The notes under the pieces were generated by a model. The model searched no databases. It saw nothing but the letters and a program-made list of their open reading frames with translations, and was not told the origin of the DNA. DNA of 17,981 nt from an uncultured bacterium (GTDB lineage Bacteria; Fidelibacterota; UBA2242; JAFGTP01). Numbering within the stretch: position 1 is the first letter of the stretch; each line of letters begins with the position of its first letter. The DNA lies in the NCBI GenBank assembly GCA_964640055.1, contig CAZXFH010000027.1, positions 1 through 17,981 of the forward strand, read 5' to 3'. The translations under genes and the position numbers were made by a program. This document shows, one piece after another, positions 1 to 17,918 of this stretch.

Positions 1-2234
1 TGTCTGATGTCACCCAGCTCACCTTTACGCCCGGTACCGATGAAAACGGATTTCCCTATGCAACCTTTCAGTTTCAGGTCAATGATGCTGTGGGTAACTG
101 GTCAGCGGATTATACCGTGACTTTCAATGTAAGAAGCGTAAACGATTCACCCGTCGTGGCTGATACCATTCCGGACCAGATCGCTTATGAAGATGCCGCT
201 TTTACCTTTACTTTTGGAGATACTGTTTTTAATGATGGGGATACCAGCGACAGTTTGCGGTACACGGCCACCTTATCCGATGCCAGTGCCCTACCCAACT
301 GGCTTTCTTTTGAGGGGGCTAATCCGCGCACGTTCAGCGGTACACCGGGAAATGATGATATTGATACTCTCACTGTGAAGGTCACGGCCACTGATGACTC
401 TGCCGCTAGTGCCTTTACAGCATTTGAGTTGGCCGTAATCAACACCAATGATCCCCCTATACTGACCGCAATTCCGGATACGATGTGTAATGAAGACAGT
501 CGTTTGACTATCTCAGTGACCGCCAGCGATGTGGATGCCATGAATAACCTATTATTAAGTGTATCCGCAGATACTTCCGCAGTTACAGCGGAATTTTCCG
601 CGAAAGGATCAGAATTGACTCAGGAGTTACTGATCACCCCGCAATCCAACTGGAATGGCACAGCCACAATTACCATCGTGGTTAATGACCAGGAATCCAA
701 AGCAACTGATACAACCGGTTTTACAATTACCATCTTAGCCAGAAATGATGCACCGGTAATCACCACGACAGAATTAACAGCGGCCATGGAAGATCAAACC
801 TACCATTTCAGTTTTACCGCAACCGATCCAGACCTGATCTATGGCGATACTTTGACCTATGCATTATCTGTCTCTCCCCAAGGCATGACAATTGATACCA
901 ACACAGGCGAAATCACCTGGTTACCAGACAATGGTGATGTCGGTGATACCAGCCTAACCGTCACAGTCAGCGATGATAGTAGCGCGACTGATGAAGAAAG
1001 CTTTACGCTAACAGTACATAACACCAATGATCCCCCACTGGTTGCTAATACCATTCCGAACCAAATCGCTACCGAAGACAGCTTGTTCTCTTTTACTTTT
1101 GGTGATACCGTTTTTACTGATATAGACGCTGACGACAGTTTAAGGTTCACAGCCAATCTGTCGGATGGCAGTGCCTTACCGGACTGGCTTGGGTTTGAGG
1201 AATCCACTCCACGTACCTTCAGCGGTACTCCTACAAATGAGGATATCGACACCATTAGCGTACAGGTTACAGCCATTGATGACTCTGCCGCTAACACCGC
1301 CACCGAGTTTGAGATCACCGTGATTAATATCAATGATCCACCGGTCATTACAAATCTGCCGGACACCGCTTTTGCCGAGGACAAACAATTATCTTTAGGA
1401 CTGAATTATTTCGCTTCCTTTGTGGAAGATCCTGATACGCCCGATAGCCTTTTGAGCTTTGCAATATCAGAGGCAAACTTAGTTCACTTCTCACTCGAAG
1501 AGGATTCTTTATTTTTATATGCAGCGCCAAATATATTTGGTGTTGATACTTTAATCGTTGCTGTTAATGACGGCGAATACCAGGACTCCACGCCAATGAT
1601 TGTGAATATCCTGCCGGTTAATGACGCACCCATTTTTACTGAAATAATGCCCGATACGATCCGCTTTGATTCCAATCAAGCGGATACCCTTGAATTAACC
1701 GGATTATTTACAGATATTGATACACCCGATTCATTACTGGTCTTATCCTATGTTTACAGCAGGTTTGTAAATTATGAGCGGATTGACTCGCTAAACATCA
1801 TCAAACTATCGACTGAAAATAATCAGGCCGGTACCGATACTCTGATACTATCCGTTTCAGATGGAGAATTAGAGACCATCGATTCCGTGTTAATTCAGGT
1901 GAAAAAAATAACTGGTATTGATTATGTGATGGGTCAAACACCCAAAGAGTTTAAATTATATCAAAATTATCCCAATCCCTTTAATCCTACTACCCATATA
2001 ATCTACAGCATACCCCAGGATTGTGAAGTAGAGCTGAGAATTTATGATATTCGTGGCAGAGAAATTGCTCTACTGGTTAAGGAAAAGCAGGGACCCAAAA
2101 ATTACAGAGTTATTTGGGACGGCTGCAATCAATCCGGTAGACAGGTTGCGAGTGGTATCTATTTTTACCAGATAATCGCTAAGTCAAAAAATAAAACCTT
2201 TATCAAAACTAAAAAGATGATGTTTTTGGAATAA
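1..2234 (+). CDS. 5'-truncated giant cell-surface adhesin with repeated cadherin-like (NDAP/NDPP-linked) and putative-Ig (PF05345-like) domains and a C-terminal T9SS (Por secretion) sorting domain
   Basis: The reading frame is open from base 3 with no stop, so the gene starts upstream of the window. The ORF track entry 90..2234 begins at an internal GTG. Segments ending in VNDSP/TNDPP/NDAP recur, and LSDxSALPxWLxF...RTFSGTP motifs are typical of bacterial cadherin-like and dystroglycan-type Ig domains. The last ~85 aa (KLYQNYPNPFNPTT...IYDIRGREIA...GIYFYQI) match the T9SS C-terminal domain signature. Confidence 0.8.
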   Translation, partial: SDVTQLTFTPGTDENGFPYATFQFQVNDAVGNWSADYTVTFNVRSVNDSPVVADTIPDQIAYEDAAFTFTFGDTVFNDGDTSDSLRYTATLSDASALPNWLSFEGANPRTFSGTPGNDDIDTLTVKVTATDDSAASAFTAFELAVINTNDPPILTAIPDTMCNEDSRLTISVTASDVDAMNNLLLSVSADTSAVTAEFSAKGSELTQELLITPQSNWNGTATITIVVNDQESKATDTTGFTITILARNDAPVITTTELTAAMEDQTYHFSFTATDPDLIYGDTLTYALSVSPQGMTIDTNTGEITWLPDNGDVGDTSLTVTVSDDSSATDEESFTLTVHNTNDPPLVANTIPNQIATEDSLFSFTFGDTVFTDIDADDSLRFTANLSDGSALPDWLGFEESTPRTFSGTPTNEDIDTISVQVTAIDDSAANTATEFEITVININDPPVITNLPDTAFAEDKQLSLGLNYFASFVEDPDTPDSLLSFAISEANLVHFSLEEDSLFLYAAPNIFGVDTLIVAVNDGEYQDSTPMIVNILPVNDAPIFTEIMPDTIRFDSNQADTLELTGLFTDIDTPDSLLVLSYVYSRFVNYERIDSLNIIKLSTENNQAGTDTLILSVSDGELETIDSVLIQVKKITGIDYVMGQTPKEFKLYQNYPNPFNPTTHIIYSIPQDCEVELRIYDIRGREIALLVKEKQGPKNYRVIWDGCNQSGRQVASGIYFYQIIAKSKNKTFIKTKKMMFLE
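166..468 (+). repeat. Intragenic direct repeat copy A (~300 bp domain duplication inside the adhesin gene)
   Basis: The nucleotide string ccattccggaccagatcgc...gatgactctgccgct...aatgatccccct is visibly similar to 1051-1345, at roughly 70-75% identity by eye. The protein segments IPDQIAYEDAAFTFTFGDTVFNDGDTSDSLRYTATLSD and IPNQIATEDSLFSFTFGDTVFTDIDADDSLRFTANLSD align. Confidence 0.7.
1051..1345 (+). repeat. Intragenic direct repeat copy B
   Basis: Partner of 166-468: ccattccgaaccaaatcgc...gatgactctgccgct...aatgatccaccg. Confidence 0.7.
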
Positions 2235-2639: not shown

Positions 2640-2664
2640 ATCTTTAAAACCGATGGAGCCTATT

Positions 2665-3519
2665 ATGATCACCTTAGCCATCCAAAAAGCGGGTCGCCTC
2701 AGTGAAAAAAGTATGCGTTTGCTCCGGGAATGCGACATCCACTGTGAAAATGGCGGCCGGACCAAATTAAAAATCAAGGCCGGCAATTTTCCGCTGGAAG
2801 TACTGCATATGCGGGATGATGATATCCCGGAATGTATCCGCGACGGCATTGCGGATATCGGTATCGTCGGCGAAAATGTCTATCTGGAAAAGCAGCCTCA
2901 GCTGCGTTGTATCGAACGGTTGGGTTTTGCCAAATGCCGGTTGTCGATTGGCGTACCCAGGGACATGTCCTATAAGTCTATTACTGATCTGGAGAACAAA
3001 AGTATTGCGACCTCCTATCCCAACATTTTACGGAATTATTTAGATGATAATCAGGTAAACGCCGAGATTCATGAAATCAGTGGATCAGTGGAACTGGCAC
3101 CCAGTATTGGTCTGGCAGATACGGTCTTTGATGTCGTGAGTAGTGGCAGTACCCTGATCAGCAATGGATTAAAAGAGGTAGAGACGGTGGTCCGTTCCGA
3201 AGCTGTTTTAATCAGCCCGGATGATCTGTCTGCTGATAAAGACGAACTCTTAAACCAGCTGCTATTTCGTATCCGGGCAGTCAACCGTGCCCGCCAGAGA
3301 AAATACATTCTACTGAATGCGCCCAATAATGCCATTGACCGGATCTGCGCTATTTTGCCAGGCATAAAGAGCCCGACGGTCATGCCCTTATCTGAATCAG
3401 GCTGGAGTTCAGTCCATTCCGTAATCGCTGAAGATCAATTCTGGGAAAACATTCAAAGTCTCAAAGAGGCCGGTGCCCAGGGCATTCTGGTCTTCCCCAT
3501 TGAAAAAATGATTCTCTAA
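2665..3519 (+). CDS. hisG: ATP phosphoribosyltransferase, long form (HisG)
   Basis: The product aligns along its full length with the long-form HisG family (MITLAIQKAGRLSEKS..., C-terminal regulatory domain present). A GGAG motif lies 6 nt upstream of the ATG at 2665. The ORF track starts at an alternative ATG at 2653. Confidence 0.9.
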   Translation: MITLAIQKAGRLSEKSMRLLRECDIHCENGGRTKLKIKAGNFPLEVLHMRDDDIPECIRDGIADIGIVGENVYLEKQPQLRCIERLGFAKCRLSIGVPRDMSYKSITDLENKSIATSYPNILRNYLDDNQVNAEIHEISGSVELAPSIGLADTVFDVVSSGSTLISNGLKEVETVVRSEAVLISPDDLSADKDELLNQLLFRIRAVNRARQRKYILLNAPNNAIDRICAILPGIKSPTVMPLSESGWSSVHSVIAEDQFWENIQSLKEAGAQGILVFPIEKMIL

Positions 3520-3533
3520 ACCGAGGTGAGCTC

Positions 3534-4832
3534 ATGGAAATCATTAAAAATCCTTCCAAAACCAGCTGGCCGGATTTACTGGCAAGACCCGGTCAGGAAA
3601 GTACCGCAAAAACCCAAAAGAACGTAGCCGATATTATCAAGCAGGTTAAACAACAGGGTGATCAGGCGCTTTTTGAATTAACCTACCGTTTTGACAAGGT
3701 CTCACTTAATCAATTACCGGTTACATCTGCTGAAATTGCACAGTCCATTCAAAATATCGATCCGGAACTGAAAGCGGCCCTCGAATTGGCAGAAAGGAAT
3801 ATCTGTTCCTTCCACGAAGCCCAGCTGCCTGCCGAAACCAAAGTTGTCGAAACTGCTCCGGGAGTACGATGCTGGTTAAAATATCTCCCCCTGGAGAAAG
3901 TCGGTCTCTATATTCCCGGCGGAACCGCGCCTTTATTCTCTTCGGTATTGATGCTGGGCATTCCGGCTCGCATCGCCGGCTGCCGGGAGCTTGTTCTGAT
4001 AACTCCACCGGATAAACAGGGACAGGTCCATCCGGCTATTCTATATTGTGCGCAGCGGTTGGGAATTAACACCATCTATAAAATCGGCGGTGCCCAGGCC
4101 ATTGCTGCTCTGGCCTACGGCACAGAGACCATTCCGAAAACAGCTAAAATCTTTGGCCCTGGCAATCAGTATGTCACGCTGGCCAAACAAATCGTAGCCA
4201 GTGAAGGGGTTCCGATTGATATGCCGGCCGGCCCCTCGGAAGTGATGGTCATCAGTGATGCCAGTGCTGACCCCAATTTTGTGGCGGCTGATCTGCTTTC
4301 GCAGGCCGAACACGGCAGTGACAGCCAGGCTATCCTGGTCAGCACCTCCCGGAAAATAATTGCTCAGGTTCAGCAGAATGTTAACGATCAACTGGAAACC
4401 CTCCCCCGTAAAGCCGTTGCCCGCCAGTCCTTGAAACATGCCCGCCTGATTCAGGTACCGGATATAAAAACCGCTCTGGAAATAGCCAATTATTATGCGC
4501 CCGAACATTTAATTATCATGACTGCCAATCCAGAGGCATTAAGCCCAAAAATTACAAATGCGGGCTCGGTATTTCTGGGAAAATATGCTCCGGAATCGGC
4601 AGGGGATTACTGTTCCGGCACCAACCATGTGCTGCCCACCCATGGATTTGCCCGCAATTACAGTGGGGTTACTGTAAGGGACTTCATGAAATCGATCACC
4701 TTTCAATCCATTACGCCTCAGGGATTGCAAATTCTGGGCCCGGCCATTGCAAAAATGGCGGCTGCGGAAGATTTGGATGCTCATAAGAATGCTGTTACTC
4801 TCCGGCTGAAACAGCTGCAAAAGGACCATTGA
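3534..4832 (+). CDS. hisD: Histidinol dehydrogenase (HisD)
   Basis: The protein is 432 aa and carries the HisD motifs GGAQAIAALAYGTE, IDMPAGPSEV, QAEHG, and GDYxSGTNHVLPT. A GAGGTGA Shine-Dalgarno site lies upstream. Confidence 0.92.
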   Translation: MEIIKNPSKTSWPDLLARPGQESTAKTQKNVADIIKQVKQQGDQALFELTYRFDKVSLNQLPVTSAEIAQSIQNIDPELKAALELAERNICSFHEAQLPAETKVVETAPGVRCWLKYLPLEKVGLYIPGGTAPLFSSVLMLGIPARIAGCRELVLITPPDKQGQVHPAILYCAQRLGINTIYKIGGAQAIAALAYGTETIPKTAKIFGPGNQYVTLAKQIVASEGVPIDMPAGPSEVMVISDASADPNFVAADLLSQAEHGSDSQAILVSTSRKIIAQVQQNVNDQLETLPRKAVARQSLKHARLIQVPDIKTALEIANYYAPEHLIIMTANPEALSPKITNAGSVFLGKYAPESAGDYCSGTNHVLPTHGFARNYSGVTVRDFMKSITFQSITPQGLQILGPAIAKMAAAEDLDAHKNAVTLRLKQLQKDH

Positions 4833-4869
4833 TACATTCAAAAAACCAGGGGAAAAGCAGGTATAGATT

Positions 4870-5928
4870 ATGTTTAACTTAAATGAATTAATCCGAAAAA
4901 ACATTGCTGAGCTCCGGCCCTATTCTTCGGCCCGGAATGAATATGCCGGAAGTCAAGGTATTTTTATGGACGCCAACGAAAACGCACTGGGCTCCCCATC
5001 TGATCAGCCCCTTAACCGTTATCCGGATCCGCACCAACGGCAACTGAAAAAGCGGATCAGTGAGCTGCTGAAAATACCCGCACCTCAAATTTTTCTGGGC
5101 AATGGAAGTGATGAGGTCATCGATTTGCTTATCCGTGCTTTTTGCGAACCCAACCAGGATAAACTAATAATTTTACCTCCGACCTATGGGATGTACACTG
5201 TGGCAGCCAATATCAATGCCGCAAAAATTATCAGAGTACCTTTAACCCATGATTTTCAGATCGATACCCCTGCCGTCCTGGAAAAATTGGCTCTGAAGCC
5301 CAAGCTACTATTTCTCTGCTCGCCCAATAACCCGACCGGTAATTGCTTTCAAGAGAAAGATATTAAAAAATTACTGGCTAATTTTGAGGGGTTGGTGGTC
5401 ATTGATGAAGCCTATGTGGATTTTTGCGCGCGTCAAAATTATCTGTCCTGGCTGAAACAATATAAGAACCTGGTCATCATTCGGACTTTTTCCAAGGCCT
5501 GGGGCATGGCCAGTATCCGGCTGGGCATGGCCTTTGCATCGGCTGATATAATCGATATTCTGACCCAGCTGAAATATCCCTATAATGTCAATGCAATTAC
5601 TCAGGAGGCGGCCCTGCGAGCATTGGATAACATTGATCAACAGAAAAAGATGATTAAACAGCTCCTCAGCGAACGCGACAAACTCAGCCAAGCCCTTTCC
5701 CGCCTAGAAATCGTGGAAAAAGTCTTCCCTTCAGATGCAAATTTCTTACTGGTCAGGTTTCACGATGCCCGCAAGGTCTATCAAGCCATGCTGCAAAGGA
5801 AAATTATTCTACGGGATCGTTCCCAGTTAATACATTGTGATAATTGTTTGCGGATCACCGTGGGGACGCCCCGGGAAAACCAACTATTACTGGAGGCCTT
5901 GTTATCCTACACAAAACAAGGGAAATGA
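4870..5928 (+). CDS. hisC: Histidinol-phosphate aminotransferase (HisC)
   Basis: The protein is 352 aa with a class II aminotransferase fold and a PLP-lysine motif ([15 protein letters not shown]). Its position in the his operon supports the call. Confidence 0.9.
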
Positions 5929-5948
5929 AGCAACAGGAGCAAACCATT

Positions 5949-7043
5949 ATGCGAAAAATTCTTTTTATCGACCGGGATGGTACCATTATCAAAGAGCCGC
6001 CTGACAAACAGATCGACTCCTTAGAAAAACTGGAATTCTATCCGGGTGTGATCTGCGGCATGAAAGCCATTGCCGAAACTCTGGATTATCAATTGGTAAT
6101 GGTCACCAATCAGGATGGATTGGGCACGGAGTTATTCCCGGAAGACACATTTTGGCCGGTGCATAACAAAATGCTAACCATTCTCAAAAATGAGGGGGTT
6201 TCCTTTGAGGATATCCTGATTGATATAAGTCTGCCCCAAGACCAGGCCCCCACCCGCAAACCCCGGACCGGACTATTAAAAGAGTATCTAAAAGACCCGG
6301 AAATCGACTGGCAACAGAGTTATGTGATCGGAGACCGGGAGAGCGATGTGCAGCTGGCCCTAAACCTGGGCTGCCAGGCAATCTATTTACATGAAAAAAA
6401 ACACCCCGAAGCAGTCCTGACCACCACTGATTGGATGGCAATCCACCACTTTTTACGCTCAACCGCCCGCCAGGCGACAGTTCAGCGCCGGACAGCGGAA
6501 ACCGATATACGGGCCACTGTAAAACTGGACGGAAAGGATGCTTCCGAAATAGAGACCGGTATTGGTTTTTTAAACCATATGTTGAACTTGTTTACCACTC
6601 ATTCCGGGATCGATCTCTCCCTGCAGGCCAGCGGCGATCTGGAGGTCGATGAACATCATACGGTAGAGGATACTGCACTGGTTTTGGGCGAGGCGATCAA
6701 TAAAGCTTTGGACAACAAGGCCGGCATCGAACGCTACGGATTTCTACTCCCCATGGATGAGTCACTGACTCAGGTTGCTCTGGATTTCAGCGGTCGCCCG
6801 GAACTGGTCTGGCAGGTCGAATTCCAGCGGGAATATGTGGGAAAAATGCCAACCGAACTGTTTCAACATTTTTTCAAATCTCTAACGAATGCAGCTGGGC
6901 TGACACTTCATATTAAAGCCAGCGGTGAAAATGAGCACCACAAGATCGAGTCTATCTTTAAGGCCGTGGCCCGAGCGTTTAAAATGGCTATCCATCGTCA
7001 GCCGGACAACACCCAAATCCCCAGCACCAAAGGACGTTTATGA
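5949..7043 (+). CDS. hisB: Bifunctional histidinol-phosphatase / imidazoleglycerol-phosphate dehydratase (HisB)
   Basis: The N-terminal HAD-type phosphatase begins [15 protein letters not shown]. The C-terminal dehydratase carries the DEHH/EHH motifs ([20 protein letters not shown]). An AGGAG lies 9 nt upstream of the ATG at 5949. An alternative in-frame ATG at 5925 overlaps the hisC stop. Confidence 0.9.
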
Positions 7044-7621
7044 CAGTTGCCATCATTCGTTACAATGCCGGTAATATTCATTCTGTCCGTTTGGCCTTAC
7101 AGCGACTTGATATCGAACCGGTAGTCACTAATGACCTGCAGCAGCTCCGCAGGGCCGAAAAAATCATTTTCCCGGGTGTGGGGGAGGCCAGCTCGGCCAT
7201 GCATTATCTCAAAGCAAAGGGGTTGACACAAGAGATACCCCGCTTCAGACAGCCTTTTCTGGGGATCTGCCTGGGAATGCAGCTGATGTGTCGGCATTCC
7301 GCGGAAAATAACGCTCCCTGTCTGAACATTTTTCCATCGGTAGTGAAGCAATTTCCCCGACGATTAAAAGTACCTCATATGGGCTGGAACACAATTACAG
7401 ATTTGCAGGGTCCGCTTTTTGAATCCGTGGACCCCGGCTCCTATCTTTACTTTGTACACAGCTATTATGTAGAGTTGAATCCCTATACCGTGGCGCAGAG
7501 TGACTATATGTTTCCCTTTAGTGCGGCGGTGCAAAAAGACAATTTTTGGGCCACCCAATTTCATCCGGAAAAATCCGGTGAAATCGGAGAACAAATTCTG
7601 AAAAACTTTTTATCTTTATGA
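7040..7621 (+). CDS. hisH: Imidazole glycerol phosphate synthase, glutamine amidotransferase subunit (HisH)
   Basis: A class I glutamine amidotransferase with catalytic Cys in GICLGMQ and the His region HSYY. Its start overlaps the hisB stop as ATGA. Confidence 0.9.
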
Positions 7622-7634
7622 GCTTGAGAATTTT

Positions 7635-8357
7635 ATGATCACCATCATTCCGGCCGCTGATATTATCGCAGGTAAATGTGTACGTTTAACCCAAGGGGTC
7701 TTTGATTCTAAAAAGGTATATAAGGGGTCCCCTGTTGAAATTGTGCAACGGTACGAAGACTATGGCATCCAGCGGCTGCATGTTGTTGATCTGGATGGTG
7801 CCAAAGCCCGGCGGATTATCAATTGGCCGACGCTTAAAGAGATCGCCACTCACACAAATTTGACCATTGATTTTGGTGGTGGTATTCAATCCCATGAGGA
7901 TCTGCAGCTGGCATTGGACAGTGGGGCCGATATGGTCACAGCCGGAAGTATAGCGATAAAGGATCCGGAAAAAGTATTTAATTGGATTAAAACCTACGGA
8001 CCGGAAAAAATTATTCTGGGTGCAGATGTACAAAACCATAAGCTCGCAATTCACGGCTGGCAGGAAAAAACCGATCTGGAGCTGTTCACTTTCATTGAAA
8101 AATTCAGGGCTAAGGGCATTCAACAGCTTATCTGCACTGATATTTCCCGGGATGGTATGCTAGCGGGGCCGGCTTTTAGCCTGTATCAGGCACTCAAAAA
8201 TCAGTTTCCACAATTAAAGATTATTGCCAGCGGCGGCATCAGCTGTCTGGCAGACATTGAGCAATTAGACAGAATAGGTGTTACGGCTGTTATCATCGGG
8301 AAGGCCCTTTACGAAGGTCGGATCCGGTTAAAGGAGCTGGAGCAATTTATATGTTAA
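7635..8357 (+). CDS. hisA: ProFAR isomerase (HisA)
   Basis: The N-terminus [18 protein letters not shown] is typical of the HisA TIM barrel, and the protein is 240 aa. Confidence 0.9.
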
Positions 8358-9106
8358 GTAAACGCATTATTCCCTGTCTGGACATTAAAGACGGCCAGAC
8401 CGTTAAAGGCGTCAATTTTGTCAATTTGCGCCAGGCCGGTGATCCGGTGGAACTGGGATCGGCTTATGCCCGGCAGGGGGCGGATGAACTGGTCTTTCTG
8501 GATATTACTGCCACGGTGGAGAAACGGGCCACTCTGGTAAGCCTGGTTAAAAGCATCGCTGCTGAACTCAATATCCCTTTTACCGTGGGCGGCGGGATCC
8601 GGAATGAACAGGATGTGGCCGCACTGTTAAATGCGGGTGCTGATAAGATAACGGTGAACAGCGCCGCGGTAAAGGAACCCGGTCTGATCTCGCGCTTGGA
8701 AAAACAGTTCGGCAGCCAGTGTATCGTATTAGCTATTGATGCCAAAAAAACAGCGGAAGACTGGACTGTTTATATCCACGGTGGCCGTACACCCACCAAT
8801 AAAAAAGCAATTAGCTGGGCGCAACAAGCCACTGACCTGGGAGCCGGTGAGATCCTGCTCACTTCCATGGATCATGATGGTACCCAACAGGGTTTTGCCG
8901 TGGAGCTGACGCGGTGCTTTGCCGCACAGCTCTCTATCCCGGTAATCGCTTCCGGAGGGGCCGGGACCTGTGCCCATTTCAAAGAGATATTTACCCATGG
9001 AAAAGCCGACGCCGCCCTGGCGGCCAGTATTTTTCATTTCGGTCAGATTCTAATACCCGAACTAAAACAGTACTTAAAATCCCATAATATCGAGGTACGT
9101 TTATGA
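8351..9106 (+). CDS. hisF: Imidazole glycerol phosphate synthase, cyclase subunit (HisF)
   Basis: The N-terminus [20 protein letters not shown] matches HisF. Its start overlaps the hisA end by 7 nt. Confidence 0.92.
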
Positions 9107-9696
9107 AAATAGATTTTGATAAAGGCAATGGGCTCGTTCCTGCTATCGTACAGGACGCCAATACCCACAAAGTGCTTATGCTGGGATATATGAACCAAGA
9201 TGCCTATAAGAAGACCCGTCAGACCGGCCGGGTTACTTTTTACAGCCGCTCCCGGCAAGAATTATGGACCAAGGGTGAGACTTCCGGGAATTATCTGTAT
9301 CTCCAGGAGATCCGGGTCGATTGCGATAATGACACCCTCCTGATCAAAGCCCATCCCAGCGGCTCGGTCTGTCATACCGGAAAAGATACCTGCTTTGAAG
9401 AAACCAATATTAGTGTGCAGGATTTTATTCACAGATTGGAAAATATTATCGCTGACCGTCAGCAAAATCCGCAAGCCGGCTCCTATACCTGCCAACTCTT
9501 CGATGTTGGTATCAAAAAAATCAGCCAGAAAGTAGGCGAAGAAGCGGTGGAAGTGATCATTGATGCCTTGGATGATAACATCAACGCTTTAAAAGAGGAA
9601 ACTGCGGATTTGCTCTATCATTTGTTAGTCTTGCTAAGAGCTCGTGATATTGACTGGGATGAGATCATGGCCACCCTGGCTGAGCGGCATAAGTAG
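9103..9696 (+). CDS. hisI: Bifunctional phosphoribosyl-AMP cyclohydrolase / phosphoribosyl-ATP pyrophosphatase (HisIE)
   Basis: The N-terminal HisI part contains GLVPAIVQD...SGSVCHTG. The C-terminal HisE helical pyrophosphatase part contains [27 protein letters not shown]. Its start overlaps the hisF stop as ATGA. Confidence 0.9.
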
Positions 9697-12246: not shown

Positions 12247-14952
12247 ATGAAATTAATCAAAATTGTTAGTTTTTACTTACTTTTCGGTAGTGTACTCCTG
12301 ATCGCCTCCCAGGCCGGGAAAGTCTATCTGGTCTTGGGCTCGGATACCGCGATCTGGGATGGCATGAGCACCGGCCGTTTTCACTGTACCTATGATCTGA
12401 GTTTGTATACGGATCCCACCCGTAATGCCAATCAGATCATGGATTCCAGCTACCGGAATCAGTTCGTTGATTCCTACGGGACCCCGATGAAAATGACCTG
12501 GTGGATGATGTGTGGTAACATTTTCCGCTATGCCACCAACACCAATATTCCGATTCCGAATATCATGACCATGTACTTGATGAAAAAATACTACCTCCCG
12601 GAAATAAATGCGATCGGTGACGAGCTCTCGCTGCATTACCATACTTTTAAATGGAGTGATTATGATGGGGATGGCCTGTGGTACTGGAATCAAGCGCTGA
12701 CCTTTTCCGAATGTCGGGATGATTGGAATTTTACCCTGTGTCAACTTCTGCTGGAAGAGCAGGTTTTCCCGGTCTCCTTCCGCAGTGGCTGGCACTACAT
12801 GGACAATGAATGGCAGCAAAATTTGAATGACCTCCTTCCCTACAGCATGCACAATGCCTATCCGTCCAAAAAAACTGAAGATACCGAACCCCTGGACAAT
12901 GTAATTGACTGGTCGCAGGCACCATCAGAATTTGTGCCCTATCATCCCGCTCCGGAAAACTACCAACTGCCGGGCGACAGTCCGGGCTGGAATTTGCGTT
13001 CGGCCCATTTCTGGGGCGTTCGTGCGCGTGACCTGATGGATACGGTTTTTGCCGCAGCTGCCAATGGCACGGATCAAATAGCCTGCTTCTGGGGGCATCT
13101 CCCGGAAACAGATTTTAACACCAATGTTGAAATTATGGATAGCCTGGCCCACAAAATGGCCAATAAATATCCGGAAGTGAAATTTCGCTACTGTACTGCT
13201 ATCGAAGGCATGCAGCGCTGGCAGCAGACGAGCGACAGCCTGGCTCCTGAAGTCACTCTGGAACAAACCGGCAATGAAACGGAAATTGGCTTCCGGATTA
13301 CCTCCAATGAAGCCACCTTTCAGCCGGTTCCTTTTCTGGCAGTCAAGGATATCTATGAAAATTATTTTATCATGGATTGCTATGCGACGGGCACAAACAC
13401 CTGGGAAACAACCGAAACAATCAACCGGGAGCTGCTTGCCAAAGTAGGGGCGGCCCTCTGTGATAGTATGGGTAACCAAAGTATGGAATTTATCAAATAT
13501 CTGCCCGATGACCAGTTCATTGACAATACTGACGATGGTTATACCGAGCTGGCGGGTAACTGGACGACCACAACAGACCGGACCTGGGGACTGGACGCCA
13601 GAATAAGCACCCTCAGCGAAAACGATTCAAATGTGGTTCAGTGGACTCCGGCGATCCAGAAAAGCGGTTTATACAATCTCTTTATTCAGGTGCCTACGGT
13701 AAACAATGCTGCCGAACACACTGTTTTCAAAATCATCGCTGGTGGCATACCGGTGGATACCATCACTTTTGATGCGGCCCTGCCACCGGATGAATGGATC
13801 TATATCAGCACCACAGAGCTATCCGCAGGGGCCAGCAACCATTTACAGATGAAAATAAAAAACACCTCGCAAACAGAGGTTCAGATCGCGGCGGATGTGG
13901 CCAAATTTTCGGCTCTGGTGCGGGAATATGATTTGGTCTTTGACACCGATTTGATCTACTTCGGGGAAGTCAGTGTCGAAGACACCGTTACCCAAACCTT
14001 AAAGTTACAGAATCAGGGTTATCAAGCGCTCACTATTCAAGAGGTCACCTCTCTGAAAGGGCTATGTCAGGTTACGGCTGAATTTCCGTTGCAGGTCCCG
14101 CAAATGGGCTCGATCCAACTGCCAGTTTGGTTCTACAGTACGGAATTAGGGTCAGTGTCGGATACCCTGCTGATCACCAGTAACGATCCGCGTAATCCAC
14201 AAAGCAAAATCCCGGTGAGCGCGGATGTACGACCTTTCTTTACCATCATCGATAATGAGGACTCTGTTTATTATCAGGAATATGGTAATTGGCACACCAG
14301 TGTAGCCGAGGCCTATGGTCCTTCCAGCCGCTATGCCTGGCTCAACTCCAGTCCCTTAGCCAGTGCGGAATTCCAATCCCGGGTAAAGAAAAATGGCATC
14401 TATGAAATTTTTGAAATTGTTCCCCGGACAGTAAACGCCACTGATCATGCCCTCTATAAACTGATTGTTGGGGAAACAGTAAAGGATTCAATTATTATCA
14501 ATCAAAACACCGATAGCGGGGGTTGGATATCCCTGGGTCAATATTATCTGCCAGCAGATGAGGCTGTTAAGATAAAAGTGATTGATACTGGTCAGAGCAC
14601 CCTGGGGCATGTACTGCGGGCCGATGCGATCAAGATCAGCCTGATCGAAGAAGTAACTCAGATCGCAGACAGTCAGGACCAGATACCTTTGACATATTCT
14701 CTGGGTCAGAATTATCCCAATCCCTTCAACGCAACCACCACGATTCCCTATACCATTCCCAAACAGGGCCGCGTTCAGGTGACGATCTACAATACGCTGG
14801 GACAAACAGTGGTAAAACTGGTGGATGAGATCCAAACAGCGGGGCAATACCAAGTAAAATTGCAGGTGGGTCATTATGGTTCCGGCATCTATCTCTACCA
14901 GCTGAAAACCGATCAATACTGTGCCACCAAAAAATTGATCCTGGTGAAGTGA
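12247..14952 (+). CDS. Secreted multidomain T9SS cargo protein: signal peptide, unassigned N-terminal domain, golvesin-C-like domain, choice-of-anchor-D/HYDIN-type Ig-like domain, second golvesin-C-like domain, T9SS C-terminal sorting domain
   Basis: An N-terminal signal peptide is present (MKLIKIVSFYLLFGSVLLIASQAG). Two paralogous ~130-aa domains (about 13517-13910 and 14245-14640) have the pattern IDNxD...YxExGxW...NATxH..YK...INQNTDSGGWISLGQYYL...VLRADAIKI, which resembles the golvesin C-terminal domain. An Ig-like domain lies between them (EYDLVFDTDLIYFGEVSVEDTVTQ...ITSNDPRNP). The last ~84 aa (LGQNYPNPFNATTTIPYTIP...GIYLYQL) form a T9SS C-terminal domain. Confidence 0.8.
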   Translation: MKLIKIVSFYLLFGSVLLIASQAGKVYLVLGSDTAIWDGMSTGRFHCTYDLSLYTDPTRNANQIMDSSYRNQFVDSYGTPMKMTWWMMCGNIFRYATNTNIPIPNIMTMYLMKKYYLPEINAIGDELSLHYHTFKWSDYDGDGLWYWNQALTFSECRDDWNFTLCQLLLEEQVFPVSFRSGWHYMDNEWQQNLNDLLPYSMHNAYPSKKTEDTEPLDNVIDWSQAPSEFVPYHPAPENYQLPGDSPGWNLRSAHFWGVRARDLMDTVFAAAANGTDQIACFWGHLPETDFNTNVEIMDSLAHKMANKYPEVKFRYCTAIEGMQRWQQTSDSLAPEVTLEQTGNETEIGFRITSNEATFQPVPFLAVKDIYENYFIMDCYATGTNTWETTETINRELLAKVGAALCDSMGNQSMEFIKYLPDDQFIDNTDDGYTELAGNWTTTTDRTWGLDARISTLSENDSNVVQWTPAIQKSGLYNLFIQVPTVNNAAEHTVFKIIAGGIPVDTITFDAALPPDEWIYISTTELSAGASNHLQMKIKNTSQTEVQIAADVAKFSALVREYDLVFDTDLIYFGEVSVEDTVTQTLKLQNQGYQALTIQEVTSLKGLCQVTAEFPLQVPQMGSIQLPVWFYSTELGSVSDTLLITSNDPRNPQSKIPVSADVRPFFTIIDNEDSVYYQEYGNWHTSVAEAYGPSSRYAWLNSSPLASAEFQSRVKKNGIYEIFEIVPRTVNATDHALYKLIVGETVKDSIIINQNTDSGGWISLGQYYLPADEAVKIKVIDTGQSTLGHVLRADAIKISLIEEVTQIADSQDQIPLTYSLGQNYPNPFNATTTIPYTIPKQGRVQVTIYNTLGQTVVKLVDEIQTAGQYQVKLQVGHYGSGIYLYQLKTDQYCATKKLILVK

Positions 14953-15564: not shown

Positions 15565-15815
15565 GAGCGGGTGTTGTTTTATCGGTATCTCTCATTATAT
15601 TCATCGGTTATGATACCTCCCTATATCCCCCAGGGGGGGACCTAATTTAGAAAATTGCTGAATAATTAACATTAGGGTTAGATATGGAATATCACAATAG
15701 GAAATACGAAATGATTGTAATTCATAATTCACAAATAAATGCTTGGTAGATCACTCATATTTCCATAATATTCAGTTGATTATGAATTGGTTAATACTTT
15801 TATAAAGAGTTGATC

Positions 15816-16508
15816 ATGCGTCAAATTTTCCCCCTGGGTTGTCTACCCTTTATGTTCTTCCTTTTAATTCTATTAATTCCCCTTTTTCTGGCAGACGTGA
15901 TGTTGACCGCTTTGAGCCGCTTGGGCTTAGCGCCGCTGAGCGCCCTGATTACCGGTATTGGAATTTTCCTAGGTGGCATCGTCAATATTCCTGTCAAGCA
16001 AGTGAGACGCGAGCAGCCGATTGATAACAGACCGTCGCGACTATACGGTCTGGACCGCTTTTTCCCCCGGCAAACCAGTTCGCGCAATTACACGGTGATT
16101 GCCGTTAATCTGGGAGGGTGCGTTATTCCGGCTTGTTTGGCTGTCTATGAATTATTACGGCTGCTCGCTCAAGGAGCTGCCCCTCTGATGGCAGCCCTGT
16201 TTGCGATTGCCATCAATGTGGGAATCTGCTACTGGTTAGCCCGGCCGATTCCGAATACCGGCATTGCTTTGCCAGCCTTGGTTCCGGGCATCACAGCAGC
16301 GCTATTGGCCTTGCTTTTTATGCCTGATTTTGCCCCACCGGTCGCTTTTGCCGCCGGTGTCCTAGGGCCTTTGATCGGCGCTGACCTGCTGCACCTGAAA
16401 GACATCCGCCGGATTGCCACCCGGGTCGCCAGTATTGGCGGGGCCGGAACCTTTGATGGCATTGTGATCTCCGGTTTACTGGCCACGCTGCTGGTCCCCT
16501 CTCTGTAA
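15816..16508 (+). CDS. Polytopic integral membrane protein, probably DUF1614 family
   Basis: The protein has about six hydrophobic helices. Its conserved-looking C-terminal motif ASIGGAGTFDGIVISG recalls DUF1614 proteins. The ATG at 15816 is the first ATG of the ORF, and the track's TTG at 15810 is less likely. No search was run to confirm the family. Confidence 0.55.
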   Translation: MRQIFPLGCLPFMFFLLILLIPLFLADVMLTALSRLGLAPLSALITGIGIFLGGIVNIPVKQVRREQPIDNRPSRLYGLDRFFPRQTSSRNYTVIAVNLGGCVIPACLAVYELLRLLAQGAAPLMAALFAIAINVGICYWLARPIPNTGIALPALVPGITAALLALLFMPDFAPPVAFAAGVLGPLIGADLLHLKDIRRIATRVASIGGAGTFDGIVISGLLATLLVPSL

Positions 16509-16738
16509 ACACCTGCTTTGGTCTAATTACTAAGTATCAGTGCTTGGTTTTTACGTATAACACTTTTATACATTTCTAAACAATATTCGGCTAAATTGAA
16601 TATTATCGGGTTATTTCTCCGGGGGCAATTTTTGGCCTGGAGTTGCTTTTCAGGCATTATATGGTTAATTTATAATATGATGTAACCATTAAAATTTTAT
16701 TTTATCTAAAATTTGTTAAACAAAAGAGGAGGTTTAAG

Positions 16739-17101
16739 ATGTCATACTATCATGAACCGGTTGAAGAGCTCAGTGCGCAGACCCGTAACTGTACCCGGGC
16801 ACTCAACAGCTTAAAAGAAGAGATCGAAGCAGCGGACTGGTACAACCAGCGGGTGGATGCCAGTCAGGATGAAAATCTGAAAAATATTCTCGCCCATAAC
16901 CGGGACGAAGAGATCGAACATGCCTGTATGTTGATCGAGTGGTTGCGTCGCAATATGGATGGTTGGGACGAGGAATTGAAAACCTATCTGTTTAAAGAAG
17001 GCGATATAACCCAACTGGAAGAAGCAGGCGCAGAAAATGAAGCGGATCCCGATACTACTTCCGGGGAATCAACAAGTTTAAATATCGGCAAAAACAAATA
17101 A
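16739..17101 (+). CDS. Encapsulated ferritin-like protein (EncFtn) cargo with C-terminal encapsulin targeting peptide
   Basis: The blocks EEIEAADWYNQRVDAS...ILAHNRDEEIEHACMLIEWLRRN match the EncFtn di-iron site (Glu, Glu, His). The acidic C-terminal tail ends in TSLNIGKNK, which matches the family-1 cargo-loading peptide consensus (SLxIGxLK-like). A strong Shine-Dalgarno site (AAGAGGAGG) lies 5 nt upstream. Confidence 0.8.
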   Translation: MSYYHEPVEELSAQTRNCTRALNSLKEEIEAADWYNQRVDASQDENLKNILAHNRDEEIEHACMLIEWLRRNMDGWDEELKTYLFKEGDITQLEEAGAENEADPDTTSGESTSLNIGKNK

Positions 17102-17117
17102 TTAGGAGAAAGATACC

Positions 17118-17918
17118 ATGGATTTATTGAAAAAGTCTCTGGCGCCGATCACCGCCGATGCCTGGGATGAAATAAATGAGGAAGCCACCCGGGTCCTGAA
17201 AAACAAACTGTCGGCCCGCAAATTTGTGGATGTGGCCGGACCCAAGGGATGGGATTATGCCGCAGTTCCGCTGGGTAAACTGCAAATTTCCGATCAACAA
17301 AAAAAGGATGCGGTCCGCCATGGCATTCACCAGGTGCAGCCCTTAGTTGAAACGCGCCGCAGTTTTCAATTAGACCTGTGGGAACTGGACAATATCAATC
17401 GCGGCAATCCCGCAATAGAGCTGGGTGACCTGACCCAAGCAGCCGCCGAGTCAGCGGCTTTTGAAGAAAAGGCGATCTATTACGGACTTTCAAAAGCCAA
17501 TATCAAGGGCTTAAAAGAAAGCAGTGCTCACAAATCCCTGGCTTCGCCGCAGAATAAAGAAGATTTTTTGAACAGTGTCGCAGATGGTGTCAACCAATTC
17601 AAGTTAGCCTCTATTGAAGGCCCCTATACCCTGATTCTGCATCCGGAAAAATGGAAAGAGATGATCAGCTGTTCACAAGGTTACCCGGTCACCCGCCACC
17701 TGGATGAAATATTGGGGGGTAACATCCTTGTTTCTGATAATGTGAACCAGAATGATATGTTTCTGGTCACCGAACGGGGTGGTGATTTTGTGTTAACGCT
17801 GGGCGCTGATTTTTCGCTGGGTTATGAACATCATGATCACCAGAAAGTACAGCTGTTTCTGGCCGAATCCTTTACCTTTCAGGTCCTGGATCCGGAAGCG
17901 GTGATCATTTTTACTTAA
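17118..17918 (+). CDS. Family 1 encapsulin nanocompartment shell protein (HK97-fold, linocin M18 / Thermotoga maritima type)
   Basis: The 266-aa product aligns along its full length with the T. maritima encapsulin as recalled from memory (MDLLKKSLAPITADAWDEIN...RKFVDVAGPKGWDYAAVPLG...FQLDLWELDN...IEGPYTLIL...ERGGDFVLTLGADFSLGYE). An AGGAGA Shine-Dalgarno site lies 8 nt upstream, and the gene sits 17 nt downstream of its cargo gene. Confidence 0.88.
   Translation: MDLLKKSLAPITADAWDEINEEATRVLKNKLSARKFVDVAGPKGWDYAAVPLGKLQISDQQKKDAVRHGIHQVQPLVETRRSFQLDLWELDNINRGNPAIELGDLTQAAAESAAFEEKAIYYGLSKANIKGLKESSAHKSLASPQNKEDFLNSVADGVNQFKLASIEGPYTLILHPEKWKEMISCSQGYPVTRHLDEILGGNILVSDNVNQNDMFLVTERGGDFVLTLGADFSLGYEHHDHQKVQLFLAESFTFQVLDPEAVIIFT

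Follow-up and report, generated by a model that had tools for sequence, protein, structure and literature searches.

A predicted EncFtn encapsulin operon of the classical Family 1 type on a contig from an uncultured bacterium

Two short adjacent genes near the end of contig CAZXFH010000027.1, which derives from an uncultured bacterium of the Fidelibacterota (assembly GCA_964640055.1), raise the question of whether this organism builds an encapsulin nanocompartment for the handling of iron, to which known type such a compartment would belong, and how far it departs from that type. The window, that is, the whole stretch of DNA that was analyzed, comprises 17,981 nucleotides (nt). In it, an initial annotation made from the sequence alone had placed a two-gene operon at positions 16739–17918, encoding proteins of 120 and 266 amino acids (aa), and both the coordinates and the lengths are exact; its interpretation is upheld as well. 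The two genes are almost certainly a co-transcribed Family 1 (classical) encapsulin operon, in which an encapsulated ferritin (EncFtn) is the cargo and the product of the downstream gene is the shell. Gene structure, family membership, conservation of the metal ligands and of a C-terminal tail motif, predicted fold, and conserved gene order carry this assignment, which no result contradicts, and its vulnerable side consists of weak points only.

The cargo open reading frame (ORF) occupies positions 16739..17101 of the plus strand and the shell ORF positions 17118..17918 of the same strand. As read from the sequence, each begins with ATG and ends with TAA, and 16 nt separate them. The Shine–Dalgarno sites that had been annotated are present ahead of both starts: AGGAGG (16727..16732, plus strand) lies 6 nt 5' of the EncFtn ATG and is the strongest such site of the 15 window genes compared, while AGGAG (17104..17108, plus strand) lies within the spacer, 9 nt 5' of the shell ATG. 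Moreover, no terminator-like site was found on the plus strand between the two genes, and thus a spacer of only 16 nt with a ribosome-binding site of its own fits a single transcript.

The 120-aa protein matches the Pfam model EncFtn-like (PF22277) with 142.8 bits (cut-off 27; E 2.8e-42) over residues 4–87, and the NCBIfam model TIGR04535, "encapsulin-associated ferritin-like protein", with 157.9 bits (cut-off 125). Its score against the EncB family model is 68 bits, under the cut-off of 90, and therefore the cargo does not belong to the EncB subtype. The protein consists of a two-helix ferritin-like ferroxidase domain (aa 4–87), an acidic, Gly/Ser-rich linker (aa 88–112), and a C-terminal targeting peptide. 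The nearest solved relative is the EncFtn of Rhodospirillum rubrum (Rru_A0973; 33bf, 5da5), which aligns without gaps over query residues 4–97; in the comparison with 5da5, 55 of the 88 residues of the structured domain are identical (62%), again with no gaps. The nearest database relative, copies apparently from the same organism aside, is 73% identical.

Ten metal-site residues of the R. rubrum protein were checked (E31, E32, E34, W38, Y39, H57, E61, E62, E64, and H65), and their counterparts in the query, each four positions earlier, are all identical: E27, E28, E30, W34, Y35, H53, E57, E58, E60, and H61. Residues of the ferroxidase center, the entry site, and the secondary site are, thus, all kept, and none of the ten varies in an alignment that comprises the query and 44 homologs of 65–75% identity. 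The initial annotation had stated that the metal ligands of encapsulated ferritins are retained, and both the pairwise comparison with R. rubrum and this 45-sequence alignment bear it out for the ferroxidase and the accessory ligands. In R. rubrum, the di-iron ferroxidase center is coordinated by Glu32, Glu62, and His65, and their mutation is reported to reduce or abolish ferroxidase activity (PMC11202242). By alignment, the predicted center of the query is formed by Glu28, Glu58, and His61, the last two lying in the ExxH motif E58-I-E-H61. Since the R. rubrum EncFtn, whose decamer has been solved, is 62% identical, the cargo would form an annular decamer (a pentamer of dimers), incapable of storing iron alone, and have ferroxidase activity.

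The C-terminus of the cargo reads ...EAGAENEADPDTTSGESTSLNIGKNK (also ...TTSGESTSLNIGKNK), as it had been quoted initially, and the targeting peptide stretch GESTSLNIGKNK ends in SLNIGKNK (aa 113–120; 17075..17098, plus strand). Among the 120 best cargo homologs, whose last 32 residues were compared, the tail comprises a conserved "EGDIT.LEE" segment, a variable acidic Gly/Ser-rich linker, and a terminal motif [SD]-L-[GN]-I-G-K-[ILM]-K. The query sequence S-L-N-I-G-K-N-K fits the [SD]L[GN]IGK part of this motif, and it sits where the motif sits in the homologs, in agreement with its proposed role as the docking peptide. Of the homologs aligned, at least 90% keep L114 and I116. In general, targeting peptides conform to L(F)-x-V(I)-x-x-L(I), with LxI(L)x as the minimal form (PMC11202242); L114-N-I116-G matches the minimal form. 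In the T=1 system of Thermotoga maritima (T denoting the triangulation number of the shell), binding needs two hydrophobic residues around a hinge (LGI), and lysines close to the C-terminus of the peptide touch a negative patch (PMC7925596).

The 266-aa protein matches Pfam Linocin_M18 (PF04454) over the entire model (positions 1–253 of 253) with 272.6 bits (cut-off 24.3; E 3.5e-81), and the NCBIfam equivalog NF041155 encap_f1, "family 1 encapsulin nanocompartment shell protein", with 267.3 bits (cut-off 100). A profile search with Linocin_M18/encapsulin and EncFtn models had been proposed at the outset as a check on the two proteins, and both pass it. In a sequence search of the PDB, the best match of the shell was the T. 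maritima encapsulin 3dkt (E 5.8e-65), followed by that of Haliangium ochraceum (E 1.7e-60). T=1 shells score between E 1e-65 and 1e-43 in this search, and the T=3/T=4 shells of Myxococcus xanthus, Pyrococcus furiosus, and Quasibacillus thermotolerans about 1e-5 or worse. The length of the protein is also like that of T=1 shells (264–266 aa) and unlike that of T=3/T=4 shells (278–287 aa).

An AlphaFold2 model of the shell monomer, built on a 47-sequence alignment, has a mean predicted local distance difference test (pLDDT) score of 92.1 and a predicted template modelling (pTM) score of 0.88. When the model was compared with the PDB by Foldseek, two T=1 shells, 7kq5 of T. maritima and 7oe2 of H. 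ochraceum, matched it with a template modelling (TM) score of 0.92 and a root-mean-square deviation (rmsd) of 1.6 Å, and T=3/T=4 protomers with TM scores of 0.78–0.81 and an rmsd of 7–8 Å. The HK97 fold of the protomer is apparent from TM scores of 0.91–0.94 to 27 solved encapsulin shell entries. The identification of this protein as an encapsulin shell, already made in the initial annotation, is thus upheld by family models far above their curated cut-offs and by a predicted fold of the T=1 protomer. As judged from its nearest solved relatives, the shell is probably a T=1 particle of 60 subunits, about 24 nm across.

Two further features of the shell deserve mention. At the five-fold pore, the loop SCSQGYP includes a Cys and carries no charge; it was considered as an oddity and dropped, as close homologs have a loop of equal length whose sequence varies among them, and pore residues of encapsulins are not conserved in general (PMC11202242). 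Moreover, shell Trp88 (17379–17381) aligns with Trp87 of T. maritima, which stacks on flavin mononucleotide (FMN) in that shell (Figure 10 legend, PMC11202242), and is invariant in 47 homologs. Flavin binding may therefore be shared with T. maritima, and the shell would be a putative flavoprotein.

Gene order points in the same direction as the two proteins. Six related loci were compared, from GTDB genomes of Bacteroidales, Flavobacteriales, Cloacimonadota, and Tissierellaceae. In all six, tblastn places an EncFtn gene immediately upstream of the shell gene, and the flanking genes are not common to them. Thus, the conserved unit is exactly the two genes marked out in the initial annotation. 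In a Bacteroidales metagenome-assembled genome (MAG), a second, weak EncFtn-like match (positions 2527–2652 of that locus; 36% identity over 42 aa, E 1.4e-4) is situated some 3 kb 5' of the EncFtn/shell pair and may be another ferritin-like gene.

The characterized systems resemble the pair to different degrees. The encapsulin:EncFtn system of H. ochraceum (7odw, 7oe2, 5n5f) is matched by both partners, its T=1 shell being loaded with EncFtn decamers, and the cargo match (E 3.7e-28) extends over residues 4–117 and includes the tail; however, it comes from a myxobacterium and its shell is only about 40% identical. R. rubrum shares with the query the C-terminal linker with its targeting peptide and the order of cargo gene before shell gene, whereas its shell is more distant from the query shell (E 1.5e-46) than that of T. 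maritima (5.8e-65), the query linker is shorter (120 against 140 aa for the whole protein), and the query tail ends in NIGKNK. T. maritima (maritimacin; 3dkt, 7kq5), which carries Flp cargo, provides the closest solved shell, also T=1 and about 40% identical, and the Leu-x-Ile anchors recur in its cargo tail, DLGIRK (PMC7925596), but the five-fold pore loop reads EEAGHYP in T. maritima and SCSQG-YP in the query, which also carries an insertion of two residues at 210–211. Finally, EncA of M. xanthus, a T=3 iron-storage shell, likewise encloses ferritin-like cargo with a C-terminal peptide (EncB and EncC) in an HK97-fold shell, yet it matches the query shell only at E ~1e-5 and represents a different subtype.

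A sequence of steps can be proposed for the compartment from its homology to the systems of R. rubrum, H. ochraceum, and T. maritima. The 266-aa HK97-fold protein would self-assemble into a T=1 icosahedral shell of 60 subunits, approximately 24 nm in diameter, and the 120-aa EncFtn into ring-shaped decamers with a di-iron ferroxidase center at each dimer interface, to which two subunits would contribute Glu28, Glu58, and His61. The flexible acidic linker would hold out SLNIGKNK towards a hydrophobic cleft in the shell's inner face, and docking of the peptide would cause EncFtn decamers to be packaged during shell closure. Fe2+ would then enter through the shell pores and be oxidized by EncFtn with O2 or H2O2, and the ferric mineral would be kept in the shell lumen, because EncFtn alone forms no cage. 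In this way, the system could store iron and also keep Fe2+ and peroxide from Fenton chemistry.

This reading of the locus as an ordinary T=1 EncFtn operon has several weak points. The monomer model does not fix the T number or the cargo stoichiometry. No intrinsic terminator that would mark where the transcript ends was found 3' of the shell gene, either in the window or in the extension provided by one of two 3.8-kb Logan contigs (SRR7048219 and SRR7048220) that carry the same shell and reach 1.4 kb beyond the window end; the region 3' of the shell gene folds no better than shuffled sequence. The shell is also an outlier: its nearest relative in 5.8 billion clustered proteins is 56% identical, identical or near-identical copies apparently from the same organism aside, and the best match in a scan of genome contigs is 52% identical. 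The insertion N210-Q211 (17745–17750), in the loop ILVSDNVNQNDMFL, is private to the query, with no counterpart in any of the 46 homologs aligned or in T. maritima. In the targeting peptide, the hinge residue is Asn115, where Gly is usual, and the longer consensus is matched in part, its third hydrophobic position being occupied by Asn119. LNIGK is nevertheless common among the homologs, and a minority of them have a polar residue at the third anchor, as in DLGIGKSK, so that Asn119 is a small oddity and no failure of the motif.

The shell divergence (at most 56% identity), the private N210-Q211, and the Asn residues at the hinge and the third anchor together suggest that shell and cargo might be a divergent, co-evolved docking variant, which is unlikely. 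If the peptide-binding cleft has altered accordingly, cargo loading by the pair could be orthogonal to that of standard T=1 systems, and the variant would come from a lineage that bears a type IX secretion system (T9SS) and has no experimentally characterized encapsulin. It seems very unlikely that the shell assembles into a compartment that is polymorphic or larger than the T=1 60-mer, with T=3 or T=4. The T number depends on how the E-loop is arranged and is not readable with certainty from a monomer, EncA of M. xanthus yields T=1 as well as T=3 particles according to its cargo (PMC11202242), and the two-residue insertion is peculiar to the query; nevertheless, all close matches in sequence and structure are T=1, T=3/T=4 protomers deviate by an rmsd of 7–8 Å, and a length of 266 aa falls in the T=1 range. 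It is scarcely conceivable that the 266-aa gene is the remnant of an HK97-type phage capsid from a degraded prophage, with an unrelated small gene upstream. Encapsulins and HK97 capsids share their fold, and the former are often mistaken for the latter (PMC8346489), and one shell homolog is also annotated as Phage_capsid (PF05065). However, the match of the query to NF041155, an equivalog specific to encapsulins, runs from end to end, its sole Pfam match is Linocin_M18, and all of its top structural matches are encapsulins. In addition, the adjacent gene encodes a cargo with a targeting peptide in a conserved pairing, and the neighbors are the his operon, lipid and sugar enzymes, T9SS substrates, and a DUF1614 protein; neither a Pfam scan of window ORFs of at least 100 aa, covering 16.7 kb upstream, nor the 1.4 kb downstream revealed phage terminase, portal, protease, or tail genes. 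A prophage capsid was ruled out on this lack of nearby phage genes together with the encapsulin-specific model matches.

More weight can be given to a distinction that leaves the EncFtn encapsulin itself in place and concerns its purpose. Detoxification of O2 or H2O2 in an oxygen-sensitive host, and not bulk iron storage, is a tenable main role, albeit one that falls somewhat short of being the favored one. Most of the closest named cargo homologs come from organisms with an anaerobic or facultatively anaerobic lifestyle (Desulfuromonadaceae, Deltaproteobacteria MAGs, Marinilabiliales, Acetoanaerobium, Tissierella, and KSB1), and the region upstream of the operon lacks a Fur-box-like site, so that iron-responsive control is not evident. 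However, the Fur consensus derives from other phyla and may not apply here, and the chemistry is equal in both roles, which sequence cannot separate.

With regard to novelty, the EncFtn encapsulin operon is of an already catalogued and well-characterized type, and only small details of it are unusual. A database search with the cargo returned 2,821 significant matches, and NCBI already gives the name "encapsulin-associated ferritin-like protein" to proteins of Marinilabilia, Anaerophaga, and Thermophagus (Bacteroidota), of Zixibacteria, and of several Firmicutes, and also to proteins of Marinilabiliales and KSB1. According to a census of 2021, such encapsulin systems occur in 23 bacterial phyla, Bacteroidetes among them. 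Family 1 FLP systems of two Bacteroidetes, Geofilum rubicundum and Sunxiuqinia dokdonensis, appear in the supplementary table of that census, as does one of Kiritimatiella glycovorans, whose shell is 53% identical to the query shell. The initial view that such systems are little studied in the host's lineage holds for experiments only, since the census and the NCBI names already cover Bacteroidetes, Kiritimatiella, KSB1, and Zixibacteria. For close relatives, structures, ferroxidase mechanism, cargo stoichiometry, and iron capacity have been published, the R. rubrum compartment holding approximately 4,100 Fe (PMC11202242). The locus leaves existing knowledge of encapsulins unchanged, as mechanism, structures, targeting rules, and the broad spread of this operon type are published, and the pipeline by which NCBI annotates proteins includes a curated model for each of the two, whose cut-off is exceeded in both cases. 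It adds one EncFtn encapsulin from an uncultured, apparently type IX-secreting host, helps to annotate the contig, and suggests that the organism manages iron or peroxide stress with a nanocompartment. The divergent shell and the unusual tail could also interest groups engineering orthogonal cargo loading.

Upstream of the operon, the AT-rich intergenic region (16509..16738, plus strand; 230 nt) is, by its composition, presumed to hold the promoter and leader, with 30% G+C as compared with 46.5% for the whole window. A sigma-70-like promoter candidate, TTTTCA-18 nt-TATAAT (16647..16676, plus strand), matches 10 of 12 consensus positions. The AT-richness annotated for the region is borne out, but the annotation of a strong promoter is weak: the region contains 3 promoter-like sites against 2.5 ± 1.5 in shuffled sequences, that is, no more than expected by chance. 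High expression, which had been proposed on the same grounds, is plausible in view of the strong Shine–Dalgarno sites, but it is suggestive only, as the sole promoter-like match is not above chance. An imperfect palindrome, ATGGTTAATTTATA / TATGATGTAACCAT (16661..16689, strand-neutral), with 14-nt arms that are 79% complementary, overlaps the candidate -10 hexamer TATAAT of the operon and could be a putative (repressor) operator; the upstream regions of the related loci are too divergent for its conservation to be checked. No Fur-box-like site was found in the upstream region by a consensus that comes from other phyla and may not apply to this host, no Bacteroidetes-type -7 element (TAnnTTTG) was found there either, and the window as a whole contains no match to an Rfam family.

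Directly 5' of the operon and on the same strand, a gene at 15810..16508 encodes a DUF1614 membrane protein (180 bits). It is probably unrelated to the encapsulin system, because it does not lie beside the six related encapsulin loci. This gene and a radical-SAM-like gene downstream were considered as accessory genes and rejected, both being absent from all six of these loci.

As regards the host, it had been described as bearing a T9SS and using Shine–Dalgarno sites. The second part agrees with the SD-like GAGG motifs that precede many window genes. The first fits the T9SS domains found, but rests on one Por_Secre_tail match above the gathering score of 27 and another just under it: the former (43.8 bits) belongs to a large multi-Ig-domain protein, secreted or at the surface, encoded at 12247..14952, and the latter (25.7 bits) to another such protein encoded at 90..2234. 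One of the two Por_Secre_tail proteins combines He_PIG, Big_9, and cadherin-like domains, and the other Golvesin_C with HYDIN/VesB-like Ig domains; the 901-aa protein is the sole member of its 90% cluster.

The window also contains a complete and compact his operon, hisG-D-C-B-H-A-F-IE (2653..9696), in which hisB is a fused HAD-phosphatase/IGPD gene, and, on the other strand, genes for an epimerase and a CDP-alcohol phosphatidyltransferase. The nearest homologs of HisD are 58–61% identical, and the few named ones belong to Bacteroidaceae or Bacteroides. The ORFs listed for hisC (4870..5928) and hisB (5844..7043, with a TTG start) overlap, and thus the true hisB start probably lies further downstream.

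Beyond the window end, the next gene 3' of the shell is a SplB/radical-SAM-like ORF that begins about 700 nt further on (positions 2683–3501 of one Logan contig and 2682–3500 of the other). An in-frame TAG interrupts its CxxxCxxC motif, YRGC*HNCVYC, and is identical in the assemblies of the two Sequence Read Archive (SRA) runs. A nonsense allele or a pseudogene is a more likely explanation than recoding, because hisIE in the window ends with TAG as an ordinary stop.

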